Below are positions 27,751 to 54,057 of a stretch of 64,000 nucleotides of DNA, one piece after another. Source of the DNA: Centroscyllium fabricii (Eukaryota). Numbering within the stretch: the stretch's first letter is position 1; every line of letters begins with the position of its first letter. Location of the stretch: the NCBI GenBank assembly GCA_051313645.2, contig JBNRSN020000025.1:29698001-29762000 (forward strand), read 5' to 3'. Made by a program: the position numbers and the translations under genes. The notes under the pieces are model-generated. The model was not told the DNA's origin and did not search any database. It saw only the letters and a list, made by a program, of their open reading frames with translations.

Positions 27751-28740
27751 TTCAACACTGGAACAGCTTCTGATGTCAAGCTAAATTCTCAGTTTGCTCC
27801 AATAGCCCAAGTGTTTCCACTTACGAATCAAAACTGACTACTGACTGCATTGACTGGCTTATTGAGTTCCATAGACAGCTTGTGGGGAAGGACTATCCAG
27901 ATCAATGACATTTTGAAATTGAAATTGATGAAGTAATTGATTTATGAAAGATCTTTAATAGAGCCTGTGTCTTTCAGAAAAGAATACAAATTGCTTTTAT
28001 CAAAGGCACTCTGTGTCATGTTATCCACAAAAAAACAACTTTATATTTCAAGAATTATTGGGCTGGTAGAGCGCTCACTGGAGTGAATGTGCTTTGAGTA
28101 TCAGTAGTCACGGTGTGTGGGAAGGTTAGTATGTCTTGAAGGCACTGGGCAAAGTTAAAATGTCCGTTGTTCTAGTCAGTCAATGTTGTGCTGGGTTTAT
28201 GAGGCTGGCTTGGTGTTGCAGACCCTGCCTGGGATGTGGCTCAGTCACTCACAGTCAGGTTGCCAGTGGGAGAATAGCTCAAGACTGTTGCTTTCGCTCC
28301 CTCGCTCGTTACCCCTGCTGGAAGCGCACGTGCTCAGCTGTGTGGGGCAGCCACAGCGTTTGTCTCGGCCCTGATGTCCCCCCTGCCCCTCCCCCCCCCC
28401 GCGGTGGGAAGCCCATCGACACCCGCTCACCAGGCCCACTCGTGAAACAAAGCCGATTGAACAAGACGACCGCTGTCACCTATGGAGCCAATCCCTAGCG
28501 TGAGCAACAGCCTTGAGAAGAGAGGAATGATAAACGGGACAGAAAAAAGAATATTTGGGAACTTTTACGAAAACTTACGTTTTAAGTCCTAACTCTAGTG
28601 TCAGGAAAAAGCAATTTGACTTTTTGGCCTCGGCTGCCTTCCATTCATTGACCTGATCCCCACACCGTGATTATATGATGGAGTATGATGAAGCTTGAAT
28701 GATTTTTATTGATTGTTTTCATCTCCTCTTCTCCTTGCAG

Positions 28741-30581
28741 GTGACCAGCCATTCTCACATCCAGTTCCAAGCGCTCCCACGCACACTCTTGAAACCATTA
28801 CTGAAGAATCTATGCATTTCGAGGATAGAACTTGCACTGACTCCCAGTGGATGTCCTCATCTACTGTGAGTAGATCCAGAGAAGAAAGCACCAACTCCGA
28901 GGAACGTCTAGTTCCAGAAACCAGCCCGTCGCCACCACAACCCAAGAAGGTCCCGACCGATAATGACCGAGCAATAAAGGCCCCAGAGGCTTCTATTAGT
29001 GAGAAACAATTGGGAAATGGAGCTGTTCTCCTAGGTATGGATCTCCTCACAGGAGGCAACAAGCAAGAGGAGACCCTTCATGCTCATGTTTGTCTTGCAT
29101 CAAGTCTCCACAAAGACTCTCAGGGCGGTGACAGACCTTCCCATTTTTCTGATGACGGCACAAATTCGTGCACTGCCACCAATCACTCCACAACCCAACT
29201 GAGCTCTTCTCAAAACCCAAAAGATTCCTCATTGGCACCAAATGGTCAGTGCAGGGAAAAAGCTGAAGTCCTCGGTGGTCATCTGGCTCAACTTGAAGCT
29301 TTACCCACTGGAGCCTCAGCCGATAATCCTGTTCAGGAAGCACCTGGTGAAAGGTTGGACAGCACAGAGTTAGCCGAATCCCAGAAAAGCCCTACTATTG
29401 ATTCAATCGCCAGTTCTATACCACAAGGTGCTCAAAACGGATGTGACAAAAATACCCCTGGTTGTCCTATTGGGAATAATGTTCACCCTGATATGGTGCA
29501 AAGCGTTAGTTGTGATGGGCATCTTATTCAAAGTCAACATCGATTGTTGGTAACTCCTGTCCAACTATGCACATCTCCAGTGCCTGCAGTGTCATCAGAT
29601 GTGACCATAAATGATAGAATCTGGTGCAAATTGGATTCTGGGAGCCACCGGGATAGTATGTCCTCGTCATCCAGTATGTCATCAAATGACACGGTCATCG
29701 ATTTGTCGTTGCCCAATTTGGCTCGGAAGAGTTTATCCGACCTCAGCAGCAGGCAGAATGAAACCTTGGAAGGGCTTTTGATAGATAAACGGATAAGGCC
29801 TCGATCAGCTACAACTGGTCATGAAATGCTCGCTAAAGTTAGCAAAAGCAAGTCCAATCCCAATTTAAGGTCTGATGGCGACCAGCAACAAGTTGATGAC
29901 CTTCTGCCGAAGCCCTTAGCAAAGTCATCGCCAATTCCCTTCCAGTCAAACTCAAGGCGACACACCTGGAGTAGGCTGTACATGGATAGCCTCAAACAGT
30001 CTTCCCCAACTCTCAAATCAATAACGCAAAGCAAAAAGGTAGCGGACAGTCCGAGCAAATCAAAAAGCCTGGGTGACCTGACCTCCGACGATATCATGCC
30101 CAGCTTTGACAGCAAGTACAAGAGCATCAGTCGGAACTTTATCACAAGGCCCATGCGTGAGCAGCGCAGGGCGGCCGGCATGAAGAGACCCACCCAGGAC
30201 AATTTGACGGAGCAGCTGAAGAGGATCACGAGCTTCGAGCGGGAGAATGACATCACCTCCCCCACCGCCGGTCAGCCTCCGGAGACCGAGGAGACCAGCC
30301 CAGTCGTCCTTCGCAGATCTTCGTCGAGGAGCCAAAGCCGGGTGCGGTACATTGCCAACCGGGCGAAGCAGGCGCAGGAACGGCAGCGGCTGTGGAGCCT
30401 GGGGCAGAACAACCCGGCCAGCGTGCTGGAAGAGAGGGGTAACCCGGAGGGGGCGTGCTCTGTCCCCAAGAGCATTTGCACGGACATGGCCCTGCCCCTG
30501 CTCCATCGAGTCGCAGAGGAGACCAAGGTCCCACCAGCCATTGGCAGCGAGGCGGAGGTCTTCTTCATGCTAAAACTTTAA
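28741..30581 (+). CDS. PLCH2: Phospholipase C eta 2, terminal coding exon
   Basis: Acceptor ctccttgcag at 28740 (phase 1); motifs HRDSMSSSSSMSSNDTVIDLSLP, SKSKSNPNLR, SKSKSLGDLT, LTEQLK, RRSSSRSQSRVR, EERGNPEGACSV and hydrophobic C-terminus FFMLKL match PLCH2. Confidence 0.95.
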
Positions 30582-34886: not shown

Positions 34887-35604
34887 CAGGTTGAGCACCG
34901 TTAATCGGGCACGGGCGGGACCAGGCCCGTGCCGGGAAATGGAAAATACCGGGAGAACGAGTTTGGACACTGCGCATGCGCGCCAGTCAAAATGGCCGCG
35001 CGCATGCGCGCAGCATTGCGATTCGCTGGCGCGCGCGCATGCGCAAATCGGGCCCGGGTCCGCCGTCCCTCTCCATCGCCTTTGGATAAATGCAAAAAGT
35101 CACACAACACCAGGTTTAAAGTCCAACGTTTTATTTTAAATCACAAGCTTTCGGAGCTCCGAAAGCTTGTGATTTAAAATAAAACGTTGGACTTTAAACC
35201 TGGTGTTGTGTGACTTTTTGCATTTGTCCACCCCAGTCCAACACCGGCACCTCCGCATTATCGCCTTTGGGGTTGCTGCTGCCACCGAGCGGGACTCAGG
35301 CTGACAGCTGTTGCCTGGTGACTGTCCGCCTCAGTCACGGGGCTCAGCTGTCGAGAAAATAACGGGCGGCCGTATTGAATTATCTGCGCATGCGCTAACC
35401 GTCCGGTGACGCATGCGCAGATCATTCAAAACACCCGCAGCTGTTTTGAATGATCTGCGCATGCGCTCGGCGCATGCGCAGATCAATCGCTGAAGCCACG
35501 ATGGGGGCTGCCATTTTGCGCATGCGCAGTGCAGTCGGGGCAATTTGTGCCGGCAGACTGAAGCTGCCGGCTATTCGGGACACGGATTAACGGTGCTCAA
35601 CCTG
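34887..35604. mobile_element. CpG-rich Tigger-like MITE
   Basis: TA|caggttgagcaccgttaatc...gattaacggtgctcaacctg|TA. Confidence 0.9.
35086..35259. mobile_element. Palindromic Penelope-type family A insertion
   Basis: 11-bp TSD atcgcctttgg (35075-35085/35260-35270); ~140-bp palindrome centred on ggagctcc; terminal segment shared with 12689-12720. Confidence 0.85.
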
Positions 35605-36417
35605 TACTGTAAATCTGTGCTACAGTAACTGTAAATCTGTGCTATAGTAATTAAATCTGCTACAGTAACACAATCAGTGCTACAGTAACACAATCTGCTA
35701 CAATAACTGTACATTTGCTACAGTAAAACTAAATCTGTGCGACAGTAACACTAAATCTGTACTACAGTAAAACTAAATCTGTACTACAGTAAGACTAAAT
35801 CTGTGCTACAGTAAGACTAAATCTGTGCAACAGTAACTGTAAATCTGTGCTACAGTAAAACTGTAAACCTGTGCAACAGTTACACTGCAAATCTGTAGTA
35901 ACACTGTAAACCTGTGCTACAGTAACACTGTAAATCTGTGCTACAGTAACACTAAATCTATGCTACAGTAACTAAATCTGTGCTACAGTAACAATCTATA
36001 ATACAGTAACATTGTAAATCTGCTACAGTGACACTGTAAATCTGTGCTACAGTAACTCTAAATCTGTGCTACAGTAACATTGTAAACCTGTGTTACAATA
36101 ACACTAAATCTGTGCATTAGTAACACTGTAAATCTGTGCTACAGTAACTCTAAATCTGTGCGACAGTAACTGTAAACCTGTGCTACAGTAACACTAAATC
36201 TTTGCTATGGTAACACTAAACCTGTGCTAAAGTAACTCTGTAAATCAAACTACAGTAACACTAAACCTGTGCTCCAGTAACACTGTAAATCTGTGCTGCA
36301 GTAACACTAAATCTGTGCAACAGTAACACTAAATCTGTGCAACAGTAACACTAAATCTGTGCAACAGTAACTGTAAATCTGTGCTACAGTAATACTGTAA
36401 ATCTGTGCTACAGTAAC

Positions 36418-36896
36418 TGTAATGGGTGTAGGTTGGGCCCAAATGCAATACACCGAAACAGCATACGTAGAAGTAAACTACTTTATTTCTGAGCAGTAGA
36501 AGACACTGGTAACAGTGGGTCGATATGTAGGCAGAAAGTTCACAGAGGCAACAAGTCCAAAACAGAGGTCAGGCAGAAGAGAATCCAAATACCAAAAACA
36601 GATCAATACGGGTAGTCAGTCCACGAGAGCAACAAATCCAAACGAGGTCAGGCAGAAGAGAATCCAAATTCCAGAAAGCAGGTCAGTATCTCGAACAGGC
36701 AGGATCAGAGAGCTTAGAACAAAACACAGGTTATCTCAGTCAGAAAGCACAAACGATCTGGCAACCACTATGTAGAAAGCAGGGGCCTATATACAGCTCC
36801 TGATTATCACTGGTGACTCTGGGCTGTTCAATCAGGTGCGGGCAGTAGAGTTAACGAGGTGATAACCAGTTAAAGGGGAAGAGCCAACCTATGACA
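36418..36896 (-). mobile_element. Solo LTR
   Basis: TGT...ACA ends, perfect 5-bp TSD gtaac (36413-36417/36897-36901); TATA and AATAAA on the - strand. Confidence 0.88.
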
Positions 36897-37656
36897 GTAA
36901 CACTAAATCTGTGCTACGGTAACACTAAATCAGTGCTGTAGTAACACTAAATCTGTGCTACAGTAACACTAAATCTATGCTACAGTAACTGTAAATCTGT
37001 GCTACAGTAACATTGTAAACCTGTGTTACAGTAACTGTAAATCTGTGCATTAGTCACACTGTAAACCTGTGCTACAGTAACTGTAAATCTGTGCTATGGT
37101 AACACTAAACCTGTGCTAAAGTAACTCTGTAAATCAAGCTACAGTAACACTAAACCTGTGCTCCAGTAACACTGTAAATCTGTGCTACAGTAAAACTAAA
37201 TCTGTGCTACAGTAACACTAAATCTGTGCAACAGTAACTGTAAATCTGTGCTACAGTAACATTAAGTCTGTGCTACAGTAACTAACTATGTGCTACGGTA
37301 ACACTGTAAACCTGTGCTATGCTCACACTAAACCTGTGCTAAAGTAACTCTGTAAATCAAACTACATTAACACTAAACCTGTGCTCCAGTAACACTAAAT
37401 CTGTGCTACAGTAACAATAAATCTGTACTACATTAATACTCTAAATCTGTGCTACAGTAACACTAAATCTGTACTACAGTAATACTCTAAATCTGTGCTG
37501 TAGTAACACTAAATCTGTGCTACAGTAACACTAAATCTGTGCTACAGTAACTGTAAATATGTGCTATGGTAACACTGTAAATATGTACTACAGTAACACT
37601 GTAAATCTGTGCTATGGTAACACTAAATCTGTGCTACAGTAACACTGGAAATCTGT

Positions 37657-37965
37657 GAATCATAGAATTCCTACAGTGCAGATAGAGGTCATTTCGGCCC
37701 ATCGAGCCTGCACTGACACATATCCCACCCTATCCCCGTAACCCCATATATTTAATCCCCCAAACACTAAGGGTCAATTTATCCTGGCCAATCAACCTAA
37801 CCCGCACATCTTTGGACTATGTGAGGAAACCGGAGCACCCGGAGGAAACCCACGCAGACACGGGGAGAATGTGCAAACTCCACACAGTCACCCGAGGCCG
37901 GATTTGAACCCGAGCCCCTAGCGCTGTGAGGCAACAGTGCTAACCACTATGCCACCGTGCCGCCC
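37657..37965 (-). mobile_element. Full-length HE1-like SINE (short tail)
   Basis: Head, V-domain and tail as at 47257-47567. Confidence 0.92.
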
Positions 37966-38128
37966 TAAATCTGTGCTACAGTAACTATACATCTGTGCTA
38001 CAGTAACACTGTAAACCTGTGCTACAGCAACACTGTAAATCTGTGCTGTAGTAACTCTGTAAACCTATGCTACAGTAACACTAAATCTGTGCTACAGTAA
38101 CACTAAATCTGTGCTACAGTAACACTGT

Positions 38129-41100
38129 TGACGTATCGTCAATAAGACTCAAAGACGAATAGTTACCTCAACTAAAGACTTTTATTAACTATAGAACAGA
38201 GCTGGTCTTTGGCTGAGCTCAGGACGGTAAATGACCGTGGTGATGGTGAGCAGCCACCTATATACTCCGACATGAGGGGAGGAGTTAGAGGTGGGGCGGT
38301 TCCTGCAGTCAGGTATGTACAGGTATATACAGATATATATATATAGCAATGCAGTAAGGTCGTTACTGGTACAGACATTATATACAAGTGGTAAATACAG
38401 GGTTACCACATTCGCCCCTTCTTTAAAAATGAGTCCGGCGGGGTGAATGTGTGTCAGCATTCTGCAATCAGTCTCTCCGCGGGGTCTGGGGCGTGTTGTC
38501 CGCCACCGGTGCTGGCGGCGTGCTGTCCATCCTGCAGTCGTCAGATGGCGATGTCAAGGGCCCAGGCGTGTGTGTGTATGCGGGCCAGTGGTCGGTGGGT
38601 GGTGGCTGGCCGAGCTGGGGCTCGGCCGGGGGTTCTGTGTTTGTGGTCCCGGCGGGCGCCAGGTCCCTGATTGAGACCGTGTCTTCCTGCCCGTCCGGGT
38701 ATGCCACATATGCATATTGTGTGTTGGCGTGGAGCAGGTGCACCCATTCCACTAGGGGGTCCGTCTTGTGGCCGCGGACATGCTTCCTAAGCAAGACTTG
38801 CCCCGGCGTGGTCAGCCACCGCGGGAGTGCTGTCCTCGAAGTCAATTTCCTAGGGAAGGAAAGCAGTTGTTCGTGAGGTGTGGCGTTAATTATGTTGCAC
38901 AGCAGAGAGCGGATGGAATGGAGTGTGTCGGGGAGGACCTCTTGCCAACGGGAGACTGGAAGGCCTCTGGACTTAAGGGCCAGGGTGACCGCCTTCCAGA
39001 TCGTCCCGTTCTCTCTTTCTACCTGGCTGTTCCCCCGGGGGTTGTAACTGGTCGTTCTGCTCGAGGCAATCCCCTTCTGGAGCAGAAACTGACGCAGTTC
39101 GTTGCTCATGAACGACGACCCCCGGTCGCTGTGGATGTAGCCGGGGAGGCCGAAGATGGCGAATAGCGTGGTGAAGTGTTTGATCACCGTTGTGCTCGTC
39201 ATATCTGGGCAGGGGAAGGCAAAGGGGAAGCGGGAGAACTCGTCGATGACCGTGAGGAAATACGAGTTGCGGTCAGTGGAGGGGAGGGGACCTTTGAAGT
39301 CCACACACAGGCGCTCGAATGGGCGGGTGGCCTTGATGAGGTGGGCCCTGTCTGGCCTGTAAAATTGGGGTTTGCACTCAGTACAGACAGGGCACTCTTT
39401 GGTCATAGCCTTGATCTCCGAGATGGAGTAGGGGAGGCTGCGAGACTTGACAAAGTGGGCGAGTCTGGTGACACCCGGGTGGCAGTCTATCGTGGAGGGC
39501 CTGCAGCCGGTCAAGCTGGGCGCTGGCGCATGTTCCCCTGGACAGGGCGTCCGGGGGCTCGTTAAGCTTACCGGGCCGATAAAAAATGTCGTACTCGTAA
39601 GTCGAGAGCTCGATCCGCCACCGAAGGATCTTGTCATTCTTAATTTTACCCCGTTGTTTATTGTTAAACATAAACGCCACCAACCGTTGGTCAGTGAGCA
39701 GGGTAAATCTCTTACCGGCCAGGTAGTGGCGCCAGTAGCGCACTGCCTCCACAATAGCCTGGGCCTCCTTTTCCACTGAGGAGTGGCGAATTTCGGGTCC
39801 CTGTAGGGTCCGGGGGAAGAAAGCGACAGGCCTGCCCGCCTGGTTGAGGGTGGCAGCTAGGGCAAAGTCCGATACGTCACTCTCAACCTGGAAGGGAATG
39901 GACTCATCAACAGCATGCATGGTAGCCTTGATGATGCCTTCCTTAATCTAGGCGAAGGCCGTTTGGGCTTCTACCGAGAGTGGGAAGACGTCGGCCTTGA
40001 GAAGAGGCCTGGCCTTATCCGCGTACTGGGGAACCCATTGTGCGTAATAGGAGAAAAACCCCAGGCATCTCTTCAAGGCTTTGAGGTTGTGAGGTAAGGG
40101 CAGCTCCTGCAGGGGGTGCATATGTTGGGGATCGTTGCCGAGGACCCCGTTTTCCACCACATAGCCGAGGATGGCGAGCTGGTCCGTACTAAAGGTACAC
40201 TTCTCTTTATTGTATGTCAGGTTCAGCCGCTGGGCCCTGTGAAGGAATTTGGCGAGATTGGCATTGTGGTCCTGCTGGTCATGGCCGCAGATGGTCACGT
40301 TGTCCAGATAGGAGGAGGTGGCCTGCAACTCGTTCTAGTCAACCATCCGGTCCATCTCCCGTTGGAAGACCGACACTCCATTGGTAACGCCGAAGGGGAC
40401 CCAGAGGAAGTGGTAGAGCCGACCGTTCGCCTCGAAGGCGGTGTATCGGCGGTCTGACGCCCGGATGGGGAGCTGGTGATACGCCAACTTAAGGTCAATA
40501 GTGGAGAAGACCTTGTATTGGGCGATCTGGTTGACCATATCTGAGATTCGGGGAAGTGGGTACGTGTCGAGCCCAGTGTAGTGGTTAATGGCCTGGCTAT
40601 AGTCTATGACCATGCGCAGTTTTTCACCTGTATTAACCACCACGACCTGGGCCCTCCAGGGGCTGGTGCTGGCCTCGATGATCCCTTCCCGTAACAGGCG
40701 CTCAACCTCCGTCCTGATAAACGCCCGGTCCCCCGCACTGTATCGCCGACTCTTGGTTGCAATGGGATTGCACTTGGGGTCGAGGTTGGCGAACAGTGAC
40801 GGGGGGTCGACCTTCAGCGTGGACAGGCTGTAGGTTGAGCGCCGTAGTAGGTCGGGATCATCCCGGCTACTGACTGTGAGGGGGGCCAGGGGCCCACCGT
40901 ATGCCATCGTTACACTCTGCAGGTGACACTGGAAATCCAGTCCCAGTAATACTGGGGCGCAGAGCTGTGGGAGAGCGTACAACTTGAAGTTGCGGTATGT
41001 GCGGTCCCTGATGGTGAGCGTAACGCTGCAGTAGCCGGTGATGTCCGCCGTGTGGGACTTGGAGGCTAGCGAGATTTGGTAACGCGTGGGCCGGGTCTGC

Positions 41101-42817
41101 AGTGCATAGCGCCGCACCGTGTCGGGGTGTATAAAGCTCTCTGTGCTGCCGGTGTTGAACAGGCAGTTAGTGGCATGCCCCTCTCCCTTGATCCCCATGA
41201 TGGAGTTGGACAAGGCGTGCGGCCTGGACTGGTCGGCCGTAGCTGAGGCCGATGTTGGGTGTGTGTAGGGGCCCTCCGATAGCTGGGGCCTCGTCTGGGG
41301 TGAGTAGCAAGATGGCCACGCTGAAGATGGCGGCGCCGGTGATTCGCACGTGTCTGGCCATTGCCACGGCAAAGATGGCGGCGCCTGTTGTGGCAAAGAT
41401 GGCGGCGCCCGTGGTTTGCACGCGGCTGGCCGCTGTTGTGTGGAAGATGGCGGCGCCAGTGGTTCGCATGCAGCTGGCTGCGACTGTGTGGAAGATGGCG
41501 GCGCCCGTGGTTCGCACGCGGCCAACCGCGACTGTACCAAAGATGGCGGCGCTGGCGAGTTGCACATGGCCGGCTGCGCCCATGCCAAAGATGGCGGCTC
41601 CTGCGCCACGTGCGCGGCCGGCCGCCGCCGTGATTTTAAAAGAGATGGCGGCGCCCGTAGTTTGCACGTGGCTGGCCGCTGCTGGGTCGTGCTGCGGCAC
41701 CGTACCTGTGGCCACGGAGTGGCATCATTGGCTTCGCTGGCCGCACTGTTGGGTCTGGAGGTCGGGCTCGACTTGCAGGCTTTGGCGAAGTGGCCCTTCT
41801 TCCCGCACTTCGCGCAGGTCGCGCTCTTCGTGGGGCACAGTGATCGCGGGTGTTTCGCCTGGCCGCAGAAGTAGCATTTGGGCCCCGCCGGCGTCTTCGC
41901 AGCTGCCGCTGCCGTCGTTGGGGCCTCGGCCCGTGTCTGCGGTGCCCAGAGGTTAGGTGGGCCTGCGTGGAAGTTGCTCTCCCCGTATGCATCCAAGCGC
42001 CGGAGTGCCCCATCCACCGCATTAGATAGCGTGATGGCGGACTCGAGCGATAGTTTTTCCTGCTCCAGTAGCCGTTGGCAGGCCTGGCTGGACCTGAGTC
42101 CTGTTACGTACGCATCGCGGACCAGGTGGTTGGCATATTCTTCTGCCGTCACTGCCTGGCAATCGCAGGCCCGTACGAGGGCTTGCAGCACTTGGAGAAA
42201 TTCTTCATTTGACTCACCCAGCCGTTGCCTTCTGGCCGACAGTAGATGCCTGGCGTAGACCGAGTTGACCGGGCGCATGAAGTTGTCCTTCAGTTTTTGG
42301 GCGGCGTCTGTATATGTTTTGGTGCCTCTAATGAATGAGTACACCCGGCCGCTGACTCTGGAGACCAGTACCTGCAGCTTGTCCTCATCACTGGTCGCTT
42401 TCACGGCCTTCATGTAGGCCTCGACACAGTGAAACCAATGTTCAAAGTCGTTTACAGCATTCGGCGCCTGGGGGTTGAGATCGAGGCGTTCCGGCTTTAC
42501 TGCGCTGCTCTCCATTTTCAAAATATAGTTAATAAAATTGACATATCGTCAATAAGACTCAAAGACGAATAGTTACCTCAACTAAAGGCTTTTATTAACT
42601 ATAGAACAGAGCTGGTCTTTGGCTGAGCTCAGGACGGTAAATGACCAGGGGATGGTGAGCAGCCACCTGTGTACTCCGACCTGAGGGGAGGAGTTAGAGG
42701 TGGAGCGGTTCCTGCAGCCAGTTATGTACAGGTATATACAGATATATATACAGCAATGCAGTAAGGTCGTTAGTGGTACAGACATTATATACAAGTGGTA
42801 AGTACAGGGATACCACA
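38129..42817 (-). mobile_element. Full-length Ty3/Gypsy LTR retrotransposon (Mag-like, two CCHC knuckles), inactivated
   Basis: LTRs 38129-38410 and 42539-42817 (TG...CA, ~5% diverged by hand count); 5-bp TSD actgt; PPT aagaaggggcgaa next to the 3' LTR; domain order gag-PR-RT-RH-IN. Confidence 0.96.
38468..42515 (-). pseudogene. Disrupted gag-pol polyprotein
   Basis: CYFCGQAKHPRSLC and CAKCGKKGHFAKAC knuckles; protease LFNTGS (D>N); RT IDLKLAYHQ and YLDN; RNase H ESDVSD; integrase VDFKG/HSDRG/VERENG; in-frame TAGs at ~40335 and ~39948 and a frameshift near 39490. Confidence 0.93.
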
Positions 42818-42912
42818 ACTGTGAAACTGCTACAGTAAAACTGGAAATCTGTGCTACAGGAACACGGTAAATCTGTGCTACAGTAGCACTAAATCTGCTA
42901 CAGTAACACCAA

Positions 42913-43228
42913 ATCATAGAATCATAGAATCCCTACAGTGCAGATAGAGGCCATTTCGGCCCATCGAGCCTGCACTGACACATATGCCACCCTATCCCCG
43001 TAACCCCACATATTTAATCTCCCTAACACCAAGGGTCAATTTATCCTGGCCAATCGACCTAGCCCGCACATCTTTGGACTGTGTGAGGAAACCGGAGCAC
43101 CCGGAGGAAACCCACGCAGACACGGGGAGAATGTGAAAACTCTACACAGATAGTTACCCACGGCTGGATTTGAACCCGGGCCCCTAGTGCTCTGAGGCAA
43201 CAGTGCTAACCGCTGTGCCACCGTGCCG
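42913..43228 (-). mobile_element. Full-length HE1-like SINE (short tail)
   Basis: As 37657-37965. Confidence 0.92.
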
Positions 43229-43904
43229 TAGTAACACTCTAAATCTGTGCTACAGTAACACTAAATCCATACTACAGTAATACTCTAAATCTGTGCTACA
43301 CTAACTGTAAATCTGTGCTACAGTAATACTGTAAATCTGTGCTACAGTAAATCTGTACTACAGTAACACTAAACCTGTGCTGCAGTAATTGTAAATACGT
43401 GCTACAGCAACACTGTAAATCTGTGCTACAGTAACACTGTAAATCTCTGCTACAATAACTAAATCGGTGCTACAGTAACACTGTAAATCTCTGCTGTTGT
43501 AACACTGGAAATCTGTGCTACAGTAACACTAAACCTGCTGCAGTAACTGTAAATCCATACTACAGTAACACTAAATCTGTGCTACAGTAACACTAAACTT
43601 GTGCTATAGTAACACTGTAAACCTGTGCTACAGTGACACTAAATCTGTGCTACAGCAACACTGTAAACCTGTGCTGTAGTAACACTAAATCTGTGCTACA
43701 GAAACACTAAATCTGTGCCAGAGTAACACTAAATCTGTGCTACAGTGACACGGTAAATCTGTACCTGTACTACATTAATATTCTGGGGTCTGAGATCTCA
43801 GATAGTAAATTGTACTGGCAGTGCTGTAACAAGAATATTGCACCATGGTGTCCAGCAGCTTTGGTAAGTTAATTGCATTGCCCAGTAACAGCCTATTACT
43901 GAAG

Positions 43905-52102: not shown

Positions 52103-53172
52103 TCATAGAATCATAGAAGATAGGAGCAGGAGTAGGCCATTCAGCCCTTCGAGCCTGCTCCGCCATTCAATGAGATCATGGCTGATCTTTAGCAAGCTAG
52201 TACCCCGTCCCCGCCTTTTCTCCGTAACCTTTAATCCCTTTAGCTTGAAGAAATATATCCAATTCCCTCTTAAATATGTTTAATGAACTGGCCTCCACCG
52301 CCCTCTGTGGCATGGAATTCCACAGGCCCACCACTCTCTGAGTGAAGAAATTCTTCCTCATGTCTGTCCTAAATGGTTTACCCCTTATTCTTAGACCGTG
52401 GCCCCTGGTTCTGGACTCCCCCGCCATTGGAAACATTCTCTCTGAATCTAACCTGTCCAGACCTTTCAGAATTTTATACGTCTCAATGAGATCACCTCTC
52501 AATCTTCTAAACTCCAACGAGTACAAGCCCAGACTACATAATCTCTCCTCGTAGGTCATTCCAGGAATCAGCCTGGTGAAACGCCGCTGCACTCCCTCCA
52601 TGGCAAGAACATCCTTTCTCAGGCGAGGCGACCAGAACTGTACACAATACTCGAGGTGTGGTCTCACCAGTGCCTTGTACAGCTGTAGTAAGGTATCCTT
52701 ATTCCTATACTCAAACCCTCTTGATATGAAGGCCAACACACCATTTGCCTTCCTAACCGCCTGCTGCACCTGCATGCTCGCCTTCAGCGACTGGTGCACA
52801 AGAACACCCAGGTCTCTTTGCACCTCCCCATCTCCCAATCTATTGCCATTTAAGTAATAATCTACCCTCCTGTTTTTGCCCCCAAAGTGGATAACCTCAC
52901 ATTTATCCACATTATAGTGCATCTGCCATCTATCTGCCCAGTCCCCCAACTTATCCAAATCGCCCTGTAACTTCCTGACACCCTCTTCAGAGCCTGCCCC
53001 CCCTCCTAGTTTGGTGTCATCTGCGAATTTGGAGATATTACATTCAATTCCCTGATCCAGATCATTAATATATATTGTAAACAGCTGGGGTCCCAGGACA
53101 GACCCCTGCGGTACCCCACTAGTCACCGGCTGCCACTCAGAAAACAAGCCGTTAATTCCAACTCTCTGTTTT
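52103..53172 (-). mobile_element. Young 5'-truncated CR1 LINE with open RT C-terminal half
   Basis: ORF 52197-53282 contains GVPQGSVLGP, KFADDTKL and RPHLEYCVQFW with no stop before the natural end; intact 3' tail. Confidence 0.96.
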
Positions 53173-54057
53173 AATGAGTCAGGACACTGAACACGTTCAC
53201 CAAAACAACAACTGGCATTTATATGAACGCCTATAACATAGAAAAATGTCCCAAGGTGCTTCACGGAAGCGTGAACAGACAAAAAAAAAATGGACGCAGA
53301 GATATTAGGAGGGGTTGGCCCTGAGCTTGGGCTTAAAGGTGAAGAGGGAGGTGGAGAGGTTCAGGAAGGGAATTCCACAGTGCGGCTGAAGGGAGTGGAG
53401 GGGACACACATCTAGAAAACAGCTGGATTCTGCAATGGGCAGACAATAGGGTGGCTATTCTGGGAGGAAGAGATGAGATGGGCCGAAGGATCTCCTACAT
53501 GCAAAACCAACTTGTGATCCTCTCAGCAGTAAACGCAGTGAGCGAAAACATTGTTCTGAGTTTTAGTTTGTCGCTAAATCTGAAACCTTTACGTCCGATA
53601 GGGAATTTCTGGAATCACAAAACACCGTTTCGATTGATCTCAGCCCCACTTTCCTATTTCCACTGCCCACACCCCCCAGTCTCCCCTCCCTCTCTCGCTC
53701 CAGTTTGCCTCAATGGCTTCCTCCAGTAAATAGTTTGAAGTTGTATCTGGACCAGCTGAGGCTGCATCTCTGGCACTGGGTCTAGTTTTGGTTTCCGTAT
53801 TACAGACAGGATCTTCAGAGGGTTGGGTTATGAGGACAGATCCATCAGCCAGTGACCACAATCTCCTGAAAAAGAGGATGAGGGGGATAATAATAGAGGT
53901 CTTTAAGACTTTCAATGGGTCTAGAGAATTTGGATCCCTGGATGTGAGGACCAGTGGCAGAGTTTAAAGTTACAGAGGTCAAGAGAAATGTAGCAACAGG
54001 TTTTTTGTAAGAGGGTGGTGGAAAAGAAAACCATGGCAAAACGACTGGCTGAATTCC

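Follow-up and report, generated by a model that had tools for sequence, protein, structure and literature searches.

A self-priming signature in a chromodomain-free Ty3/Gypsy lineage of animals

A chromodomain-free Ty3/Gypsy lineage, found in animals of different phyla and numbering at least 10,921 copies in the single genome of Centroscyllium fabricii, carries a self-priming signature: directly past the 5′ long terminal repeat (LTR), the leader complements a stretch of the element's own LTR. This self-pairing is real and extends throughout the lineage, and it very probably has a function. Because the duplex recurs throughout the lineage, changes its letters on both sides, keeps a fixed edge and shares its register with chromodomain elements, we consider self-priming in some form likely. 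Through the arrangement of primer site, poly(A) signal and promoter, a single short duplex could shield nascent RNA against premature polyadenylation and also define where DNA synthesis begins. The result bears on how often tRNA-independent priming arose and may bear on escape from tRNA-fragment silencing, and a compact RNA of ∼140 nt with natural compensatory variants offers a direct test object.

The element and its leader–LTR duplex

The window analyzed here is a 64,000-nt stretch of one C. fabricii contig. It contains a Ty3/Gypsy element of 4.7 kb on the minus strand, running from 42817 down to 38129, with the following features:

42818..42822, minus strand: 5′ target-site duplication, 5 bp, ACAGT
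42539..42817, minus strand: 5′ LTR, 279 nt, TG...CA
42668..42673, minus strand: TATA box position, mutated in this 5′ LTR; intact at 38259–38264 in the 3′ LTR and in most family copies
42640..42644, minus strand: initiator-like motif, 31 nt past the TATA position; predicted transcript start at 42642
42590..42603, minus strand: pairing arm in the LTR, with its core 11-mer at 42600–42590; predicted to form the 3′ end of the self-primer
42591..42596, minus strand: AATAAA, the only one in the LTR, within the arm
42538..42538, minus strand: single unpaired nucleotide that separates the putative primer-binding site from the LTR end
42524..42537, minus strand: putative primer-binding site, complementary to the LTR arm, without TGG
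40335..42515, minus strand: gag (two CCHC-type knuckles), protease and the first part of reverse transcriptase (RT) in one frame from the ATG, with a premature stop at the end
38468..40334, minus strand: remaining pol (RT, RNase H, integrase), with a stop and frame changes and without a chromodomain
40299..40310, minus strand: RT active-site motif YLDN in place of YxDD
38411..38424, minus strand: polypurine tract, adjoining the 3′ LTR
38129..38410, minus strand: 3′ LTR, 282 nt, carrying a second arm copy (38180–38193) with no partner strand after it
38124..38128, minus strand: 3′ target-site duplication, ACAGT

The element belongs to an abundant Ty3/Gypsy lineage of animals and has since decayed. 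Its Pfam domains follow the Gypsy order (zinc knuckle, protease, RT, RNase H, integrase) with no chromodomain among them, the best solved relative of its protein is Ty3 Gag-Pol (E = 2e-107), and its LTRs agree at 265 of 279 aligned bases, with 14 mismatches and 3 gap columns. The LTR end was fixed from 20 further copies fetched whole, 15 of which gave two LTR hits. Each of these 15 has a 5′ LTR with CA at its end and, bar single substitutions, an identical leader behind it; most are flanked by a 5-bp target duplication. Copy length varies within the family, mostly between 4.4 and 5.0 kb, in a host genome of 7.2 Gb.

Several other repeats and reading frames lie in the window. Tandem 48-nt repeats occupy 41317–41690 (minus strand), between the gag knuckles and the protease. 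The element is surrounded by a degenerate satellite of 22-bp period (35600–38120 and 42830–43800), itself interrupted by repeats that we take to be SINE-like. A separate RT fragment (52197–53360, minus strand) is unmatched by the proteins of this element, and a 622-codon stop-free frame (28713–30581, plus strand) has no Pfam match.

The leader is 23 nt long. The gag ATG stands at 42515 and the first TGG past the LTR falls within the ATG codon, so the first-pass annotation, which had reported a gag ATG only 23 nt from the LTR and no TGG-type primer-binding site, was accurate on both points. Its 14-nt perfect complement across the AATAAA is likewise exact: 42524–42537 and 42590–42603 form an inverted repeat of 100% identity, with 52 nt between the arms. 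Shuffling produced pairing of this length in 1 of 20,000 cases for the LTR and in 2 of 20,000 for the leader, in a test whose LTR and leader boundaries were 1 nt off, with the arms unaffected. Folding z-scores were −3.6 to −3.9 for the 5′ context versus −1.8 for the 3′ LTR and its flank. Taken alone, the duplex is weak (−7.5 to −11.2 kcal/mol), and within the window's own family the arms are not more conserved than the loop (variation of 0.017 and 0.010 versus 0.019).

No TGG primer site was found at the LTR edge, either in the window element or in the family copies and relatives examined. A host tRNA search, in which 10 of 30 loci were scanned, returned tRNA-Lys and tRNA-Cys; these were the only types compared directly with the leader, whose longest complement to them was 5–6 nt. 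Rfam gave two hits, both at chance level, and no credible match at the primer site.

Conservation of the duplex and placement of the lineage

Relatives were collected from this genome and from 80 metagenome loci, giving 145 loci with a gag N-terminus. A sequence motif, chosen without use of pairing, anchored 138 of them, which fell into 32 clusters. A self-duplex of at least 10 nt occurred in 24 of the 32 cluster representatives, versus 6 of 992 pairings of a leader with the LTR of another cluster. Among the seven unanchored loci, two had duplexes of 13 and 10 nt, one had 8 nt and four had none, two of these four having too little upstream sequence. Register was analyzed in 27 families, leaving out five clusters: one (L098) had originally been given a wrong CA anchor and showed a 15-nt duplex on recheck, and the other four are single copies from this genome with no duplex or 8 nt.

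Across the 27 families, leader positions +5 to +12 are paired in 25–27 families versus 9–22 expected from non-cognate pairs, fractions that are biased upward by a register picked for maximal pairing at +2 to +12. The edge was not optimized, and there pairing is only 0.0–0.08 at +1, 0 and −1; on its inner side the duplex begins at a constant distance of 1 nt from the LTR end. Pairing exceeds that of permuted partners at positions +5 to +17 (p ≤ 0.013, under a permutation that ignores relatedness), with up to four pair types per position. From +18 onward there is no excess over permuted partners, and +2 to +4 are almost invariant A–U. The LTR partner lies 35–86 nt from the LTR end across the lineage. 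The leader core takes the form of 25 distinct 11-mers, each complemented by its own LTR, and so many different 11-mers cannot correspond to a single tRNA. The shortest leaders measure 15–16 nt and thus have no space for another primer site. Since the primer 3′ end must sit at the LTR edge, and the sole candidate site there is complemented by each family's own LTR, this arrangement argues for self-priming.

Within this genome, 42 stem sequences were picked from 93 to span subfamilies, 39 of them distinct. In these 39, 95% of cells pair across the 14-bp stem and a 5-bp inner helix, versus 23–44% in slid registers. Four of the 14 stem pairs vary on both sides, and two neighbouring pairs alternate between U–A, C–G and G–C. 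The compensatory changes that the first-pass annotation had suggested looking for in relatives were found in a conserved stem, and its self-priming proposal gains support from a stem kept with changes on both sides in 27 families.

Individual copies vary in other ways. Three (L201, L203 and L204) join the arm of one subfamily to the primer site of another, leaving one mismatch, and are possible intermediates or recombinants. Two near-identical copies, L057 and L058, differ by one change on both stem sides, as would follow from copying of the primer into its binding site. In L065 (130–255), the primer-site sequence occurs twice, within and after the LTR, giving an 86-nt loop.

Additional helices were also considered. 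An outer helix between upstream R and the gag start was plausible in shark folds and was rejected, cognate and non-cognate pairings not differing (p = 0.49; metagenome families only, p = 0.31). As judged by eye, many families, though not every one, can form a short hairpin immediately 3′ of the arm. A helix at the U5 end is unproven, three of its five pairs being invariant and the fifth broken in 10 of 39 sequences.

Other Gypsy groups of the same genome served as controls; we take some of them to be sushi-type or Mag-like, labels assigned from motifs. Among chromodomain elements, 5 of 7 copies with an LTR pair have an 11-nt self-duplex starting 1 nt past the LTR CA, its partner lying ∼410 nt from the LTR end. 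This common register means that the window's lineage shares the register of a group known to self-prime. Two further Gypsy groups (the L307 group and L299) have TGG sites and lack the self-duplex. Five chromodomain Gypsy elements (L291, L293, L294, L303 and L304) are young, with LTRs 99–100% identical, and show the classical Tf1/sushi geometry.

The closest named proteins come from sharks and rays, and named relatives occur in Trichuris, Trichinella, Actinostola, Apostichopus and Styela; viral contigs yielded no relative at all. No chromodomain was detected in the window integrase or in any of the seven relatives scanned. An RT–RNase H tree of 27 rows, rooted near two BEL elements and containing vertebrate chromoviruses from this genome only, without fungal or plant chromoviruses or named references, placed the 17 rows of the lineage and the 5 rows of the chromovirus group on separate branches, each with 100/100 support and a long stem; one tRNA-primed element joins the chromoviruses weakly (89/80). 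The term non-chromoviral in the first-pass annotation accordingly holds for the missing chromodomain and the separate clade. As a statement on sister relations it is less secure: the free tree does not join the lineage to the chromoviruses, and a tree forced to do so is not rejected (p-AU = 0.245), compatible with either one or two origins of self-priming. A position beside the chromoviruses had appeared in a first tree, built on a query-anchored alignment, and was not recovered in the better tree. In four of the five text supplements of PMC6238403, no references for named clades (Mag A/B/C, CsRN1, Barthez, MolGy) were found.

The YLDN motif of the window element is typical of its relatives: 95 of 139 related proteins have YxDN and 38 a DD motif, with no motif recovered in 6, and the self-duplex is present in DN as well as DD members. 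According to the available text of PMC2148107, Ty1 loses transposition through the corresponding substitution, D211N, and regains it in part through changes in RNase H. The present lineage, in contrast to this defect, has been massively amplified.

Predicted RNA start, poly(A) signal and possible routes of priming

In four shark families, a TATA box lies 71–75 nt upstream of the arm and an initiator-like motif follows 30–31 nt after it; the usual distance from TATA to transcript start is ∼30 nt. Both motifs are present in 21 of 22, 29 of 32, 35 of 39 and 9 of 10 parsed copies, drawn from 29, 38, 44 and 10 loci, respectively, with at least one parse of the first set falling on a neighbouring element of another family. 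As these families share ancestry, they are not independent cases; in a fifth, the strict motif was unmatched (1 of 3 copies parsed). The joint pattern of TATA, arm and leader has 10,921 matches in the genome versus 0 for a reversed control. This spacing predicts that the arm occupies RNA nt 40–53 and not nt 1–11. For the window element, the predicted start at 42642 lies ∼42 nt upstream of the arm, which would end at RNA nt 53 with the AATAAA at nt 47–52. Of the analogy to Tf1 drawn in the first-pass annotation, the pairing with the element's own LTR stands, and pairing by the very 5′ end of the RNA probably fails in the shark families.

No fixed-distance TATA was seen in 23 metagenome families, and 24 of the 27 families have none at −40 to −15 of the arm. 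The 5′ end of the arm itself bears a conserved T-rich/AG(T/C) motif (A in 22 and G in 24 of 27 families) that could be the initiator. In four loci (L081, L094, L096 and L110), a pyrimidine tract ending in CAG, ∼15–40 nt upstream of the arm, resembles a splice or trans-splice acceptor. A search for poly(A)-tailed retrocopies yielded a single locus, at which an LTR fragment runs into a stretch of A and no target duplication was seen.

If transcription starts upstream of the arm, the poly(A) signal would lie complete within the 5′ R region. In 17 of 27 families the arm carries, at a constant position, either AATAAA or ATTAAA; the other 10 arms have mostly variants ending in TAAA, and two of these families have a canonical hexamer further downstream. 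In folding calculations, the probability that AATAAA is unpaired is 0.00–0.12 in the 5′ context, 0.85–0.99 in the 3′ LTR and 0.71–0.99 when the leader is removed. With the signal predicted to be paired in the 5′ copy but accessible in the 3′ copy, folding supports masking of the 5′ poly(A) signal, as the first-pass annotation had suggested, as a possible second role of the duplex.

For the priming itself we lean, with somewhat better than even confidence, towards a route in which the 5′ arm copy, cut just 3′ of AATAAA, serves as primer. Transcription would start ∼42 nt upstream of the pairing arm, the RNA would fold back, and the arm would anneal to the site that starts 1 nt beyond the LTR. 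If the analogy with Tf1 holds, RNase H of the element would then cut just 3′ of AATAAA, producing a capped primer of ∼53 nt with its last 11–14 nt annealed, and the same hairpin would hide the 5′ poly(A) copy and leave the 3′ copy open. The distinctive parts of this route, the upstream start and a poly(A) signal at the primer end, are predicted from motifs and folding. Several observations count against it: a 53-nt primer requires a plus-strand stop after the paired part, and nothing found explains one; the metagenome families have no fixed TATA; 10 of 27 arms lack AATAAA and ATTAAA; and the isolated duplex is weak.

No such stop is needed if the primer is instead the 3′ end of the RNA, with the 3′ arm copy displacing the 5′ copy on the primer site by circularization and being cut or trimmed as far as the end of the duplex, immediately past AATAAA. 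The stretch of 42 nt ahead of the arm would then act as a strand-transfer acceptor, and RNase H would leave a remnant of duplex length, which would account for the start upstream of the arm and for covariation that reaches +17 with a variable outer edge. The arm is present in both LTRs and ends exactly at the poly(A) signal, as this route would have it. However, the local hairpin with its 52-nt loop is predicted to form first, and the sushi-type controls have the same register with a 5′ geometry. We know of no precedent for priming by an RNA's own 3′ end, and we regard it as rather unlikely that this pan-animal lineage (sharks, rays, nematodes, cnidarians, echinoderms and tunicates), mostly with a YxDN RT, primes in this way. 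If it did, the mode would be distinct from tRNA, half-tRNA and Tf1-type 5′ self-priming, and one hairpin would also switch polyadenylation. A plain Tf1-type start, with RNA beginning at or a few bases before the arm and its first 11–14 nt as the primer, would need the upstream TATA to drive a different transcript or to be specific to sharks. The 11-nt core duplex, the initiator-like T-rich/AG(T/C) motif that begins the arm, the 1 + 11 register of the chromodomain controls and the missing fixed TATA in metagenome families are all consistent with it. Against these stand the empty −40 to −15 interval in 24 of 27 families, the well-spaced TATA and initiator further upstream in four shark families, and covarying pairs extending up to 6 nt upstream of the AG, and we consider such a start unlikely.

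Two further readings dispense with self-priming. The duplex might act solely in concealing the 5′ poly(A) signal, or in the control of translation or packaging, with some other primer in use. A hexamer in 17 of 27 arms and a fold that masks the 5′ copy only fit this reading, but masking would not require the strand to start precisely 1 nt past the LTR in all families, leaders of 15–16 nt fit no other primer site, and the duplex is retained in 10 of 27 families whose arm has no canonical hexamer, making it quite improbable. Alternatively, the leader could bind a host tRNA fragment or another small RNA, its match to the LTR being secondary; the available text of PMC6317226 and PMC10886601 describes anticodon-loop priming for Copia-type elements. 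The first-pass annotation had named a tRNA match of the leader as the result that would speak against self-priming. The missing TGG and the 25 different 11-mers among 27 families, each with its complement in its own LTR, argue against a host RNA, as do complements of at most 5–6 nt to two tRNA types and the lack of a credible Rfam match at the site; direct comparison covered tRNA-Lys and tRNA-Cys only. We judge this reading most improbable. Priming by the 5′ arm copy thus remains our preferred route.

Comparison with known systems

In Tf1, the RNA's first 11 bases pair with the primer-binding site and RNase H cleaves between bases 11 and 12, as given in the available text of PMC7175516 and PMC4600332. 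The lineage resembles Tf1 and Tf2 of S. pombe, Tj1 of S. japonicus and the Tf1/sushi group in having no tRNA site, a site beside the LTR that complements its own LTR, and an 11-nt core; the chromodomain elements of the same genome also have the 1-nt spacer and 11-nt duplex. Unlike Tf1/sushi elements, the lineage has no chromodomain, forms a separate RT clade and holds the poly(A) signal in its arm. It also differs in geometry from the sushi-type controls: its partner lies 35–86 nt from the LTR end, compared to ∼410 nt. In the three controls examined, TATAAA stands 29 nt before the partner, which is the Tf1 arrangement, compared to 71–75 nt in the shark families. In the latter, the RNA is thus predicted to begin ahead of the arm, ∼40 bases further upstream than in the yeast and fish self-primers.

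Within Ty3/Gypsy, the literature available to us ties self-priming to the Tf1/sushi and Tcn1 chromoviruses. Self-priming is also predicted, from a complement of at least 10 nt starting 0–5 bp after the LTR, for plant Copia TAR elements (Houba, Osr-1) and the Tcn1 clade (PMC6317226, available text), so self-priming outside chromoviruses is not new in itself. A complement of at least 10 nt near the LTR is found in the present lineage too. The systems nevertheless differ: TAR elements belong to another superfamily, Tcn1 is a chromovirus, the hosts are plants, and the available text of PMC6317226 does not mention an overlap with a poly(A) signal. For the present lineage, we found no description of self-priming in the literature searched, which includes the available text of PMC3601003, PMC6934838, PMC6238403, PMC13524379, PMC12471100 and PMC5006619; Repbase reports, GyDB and most subscription papers lay outside its scope.

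In size, the lineage is similar to Gypsy elements of the fish Mag lineage and CsRN1, which measure ∼4–4.8 kb with LTRs of 200–300 bp (PMC11117352, available text). The window's lineage is likewise short, with LTRs of similar size. A gag with two CCHC knuckles, a Mag-like trait, is a further point of likeness, but the two Mag-like RTs sampled from this genome fall outside the lineage, and one of the elements has a TGG site.

In HIV-1, RNA structure (the poly(A) hairpin) hides the poly(A) signal in the 5′ R region, and in the present lineage folding likewise predicts that RNA structure hides the signal in 5′ R. Unlike in HIV-1, the masking strand lies outside the LTR, so that only the 5′ copy has one, and it is at the same time the putative primer-binding site.
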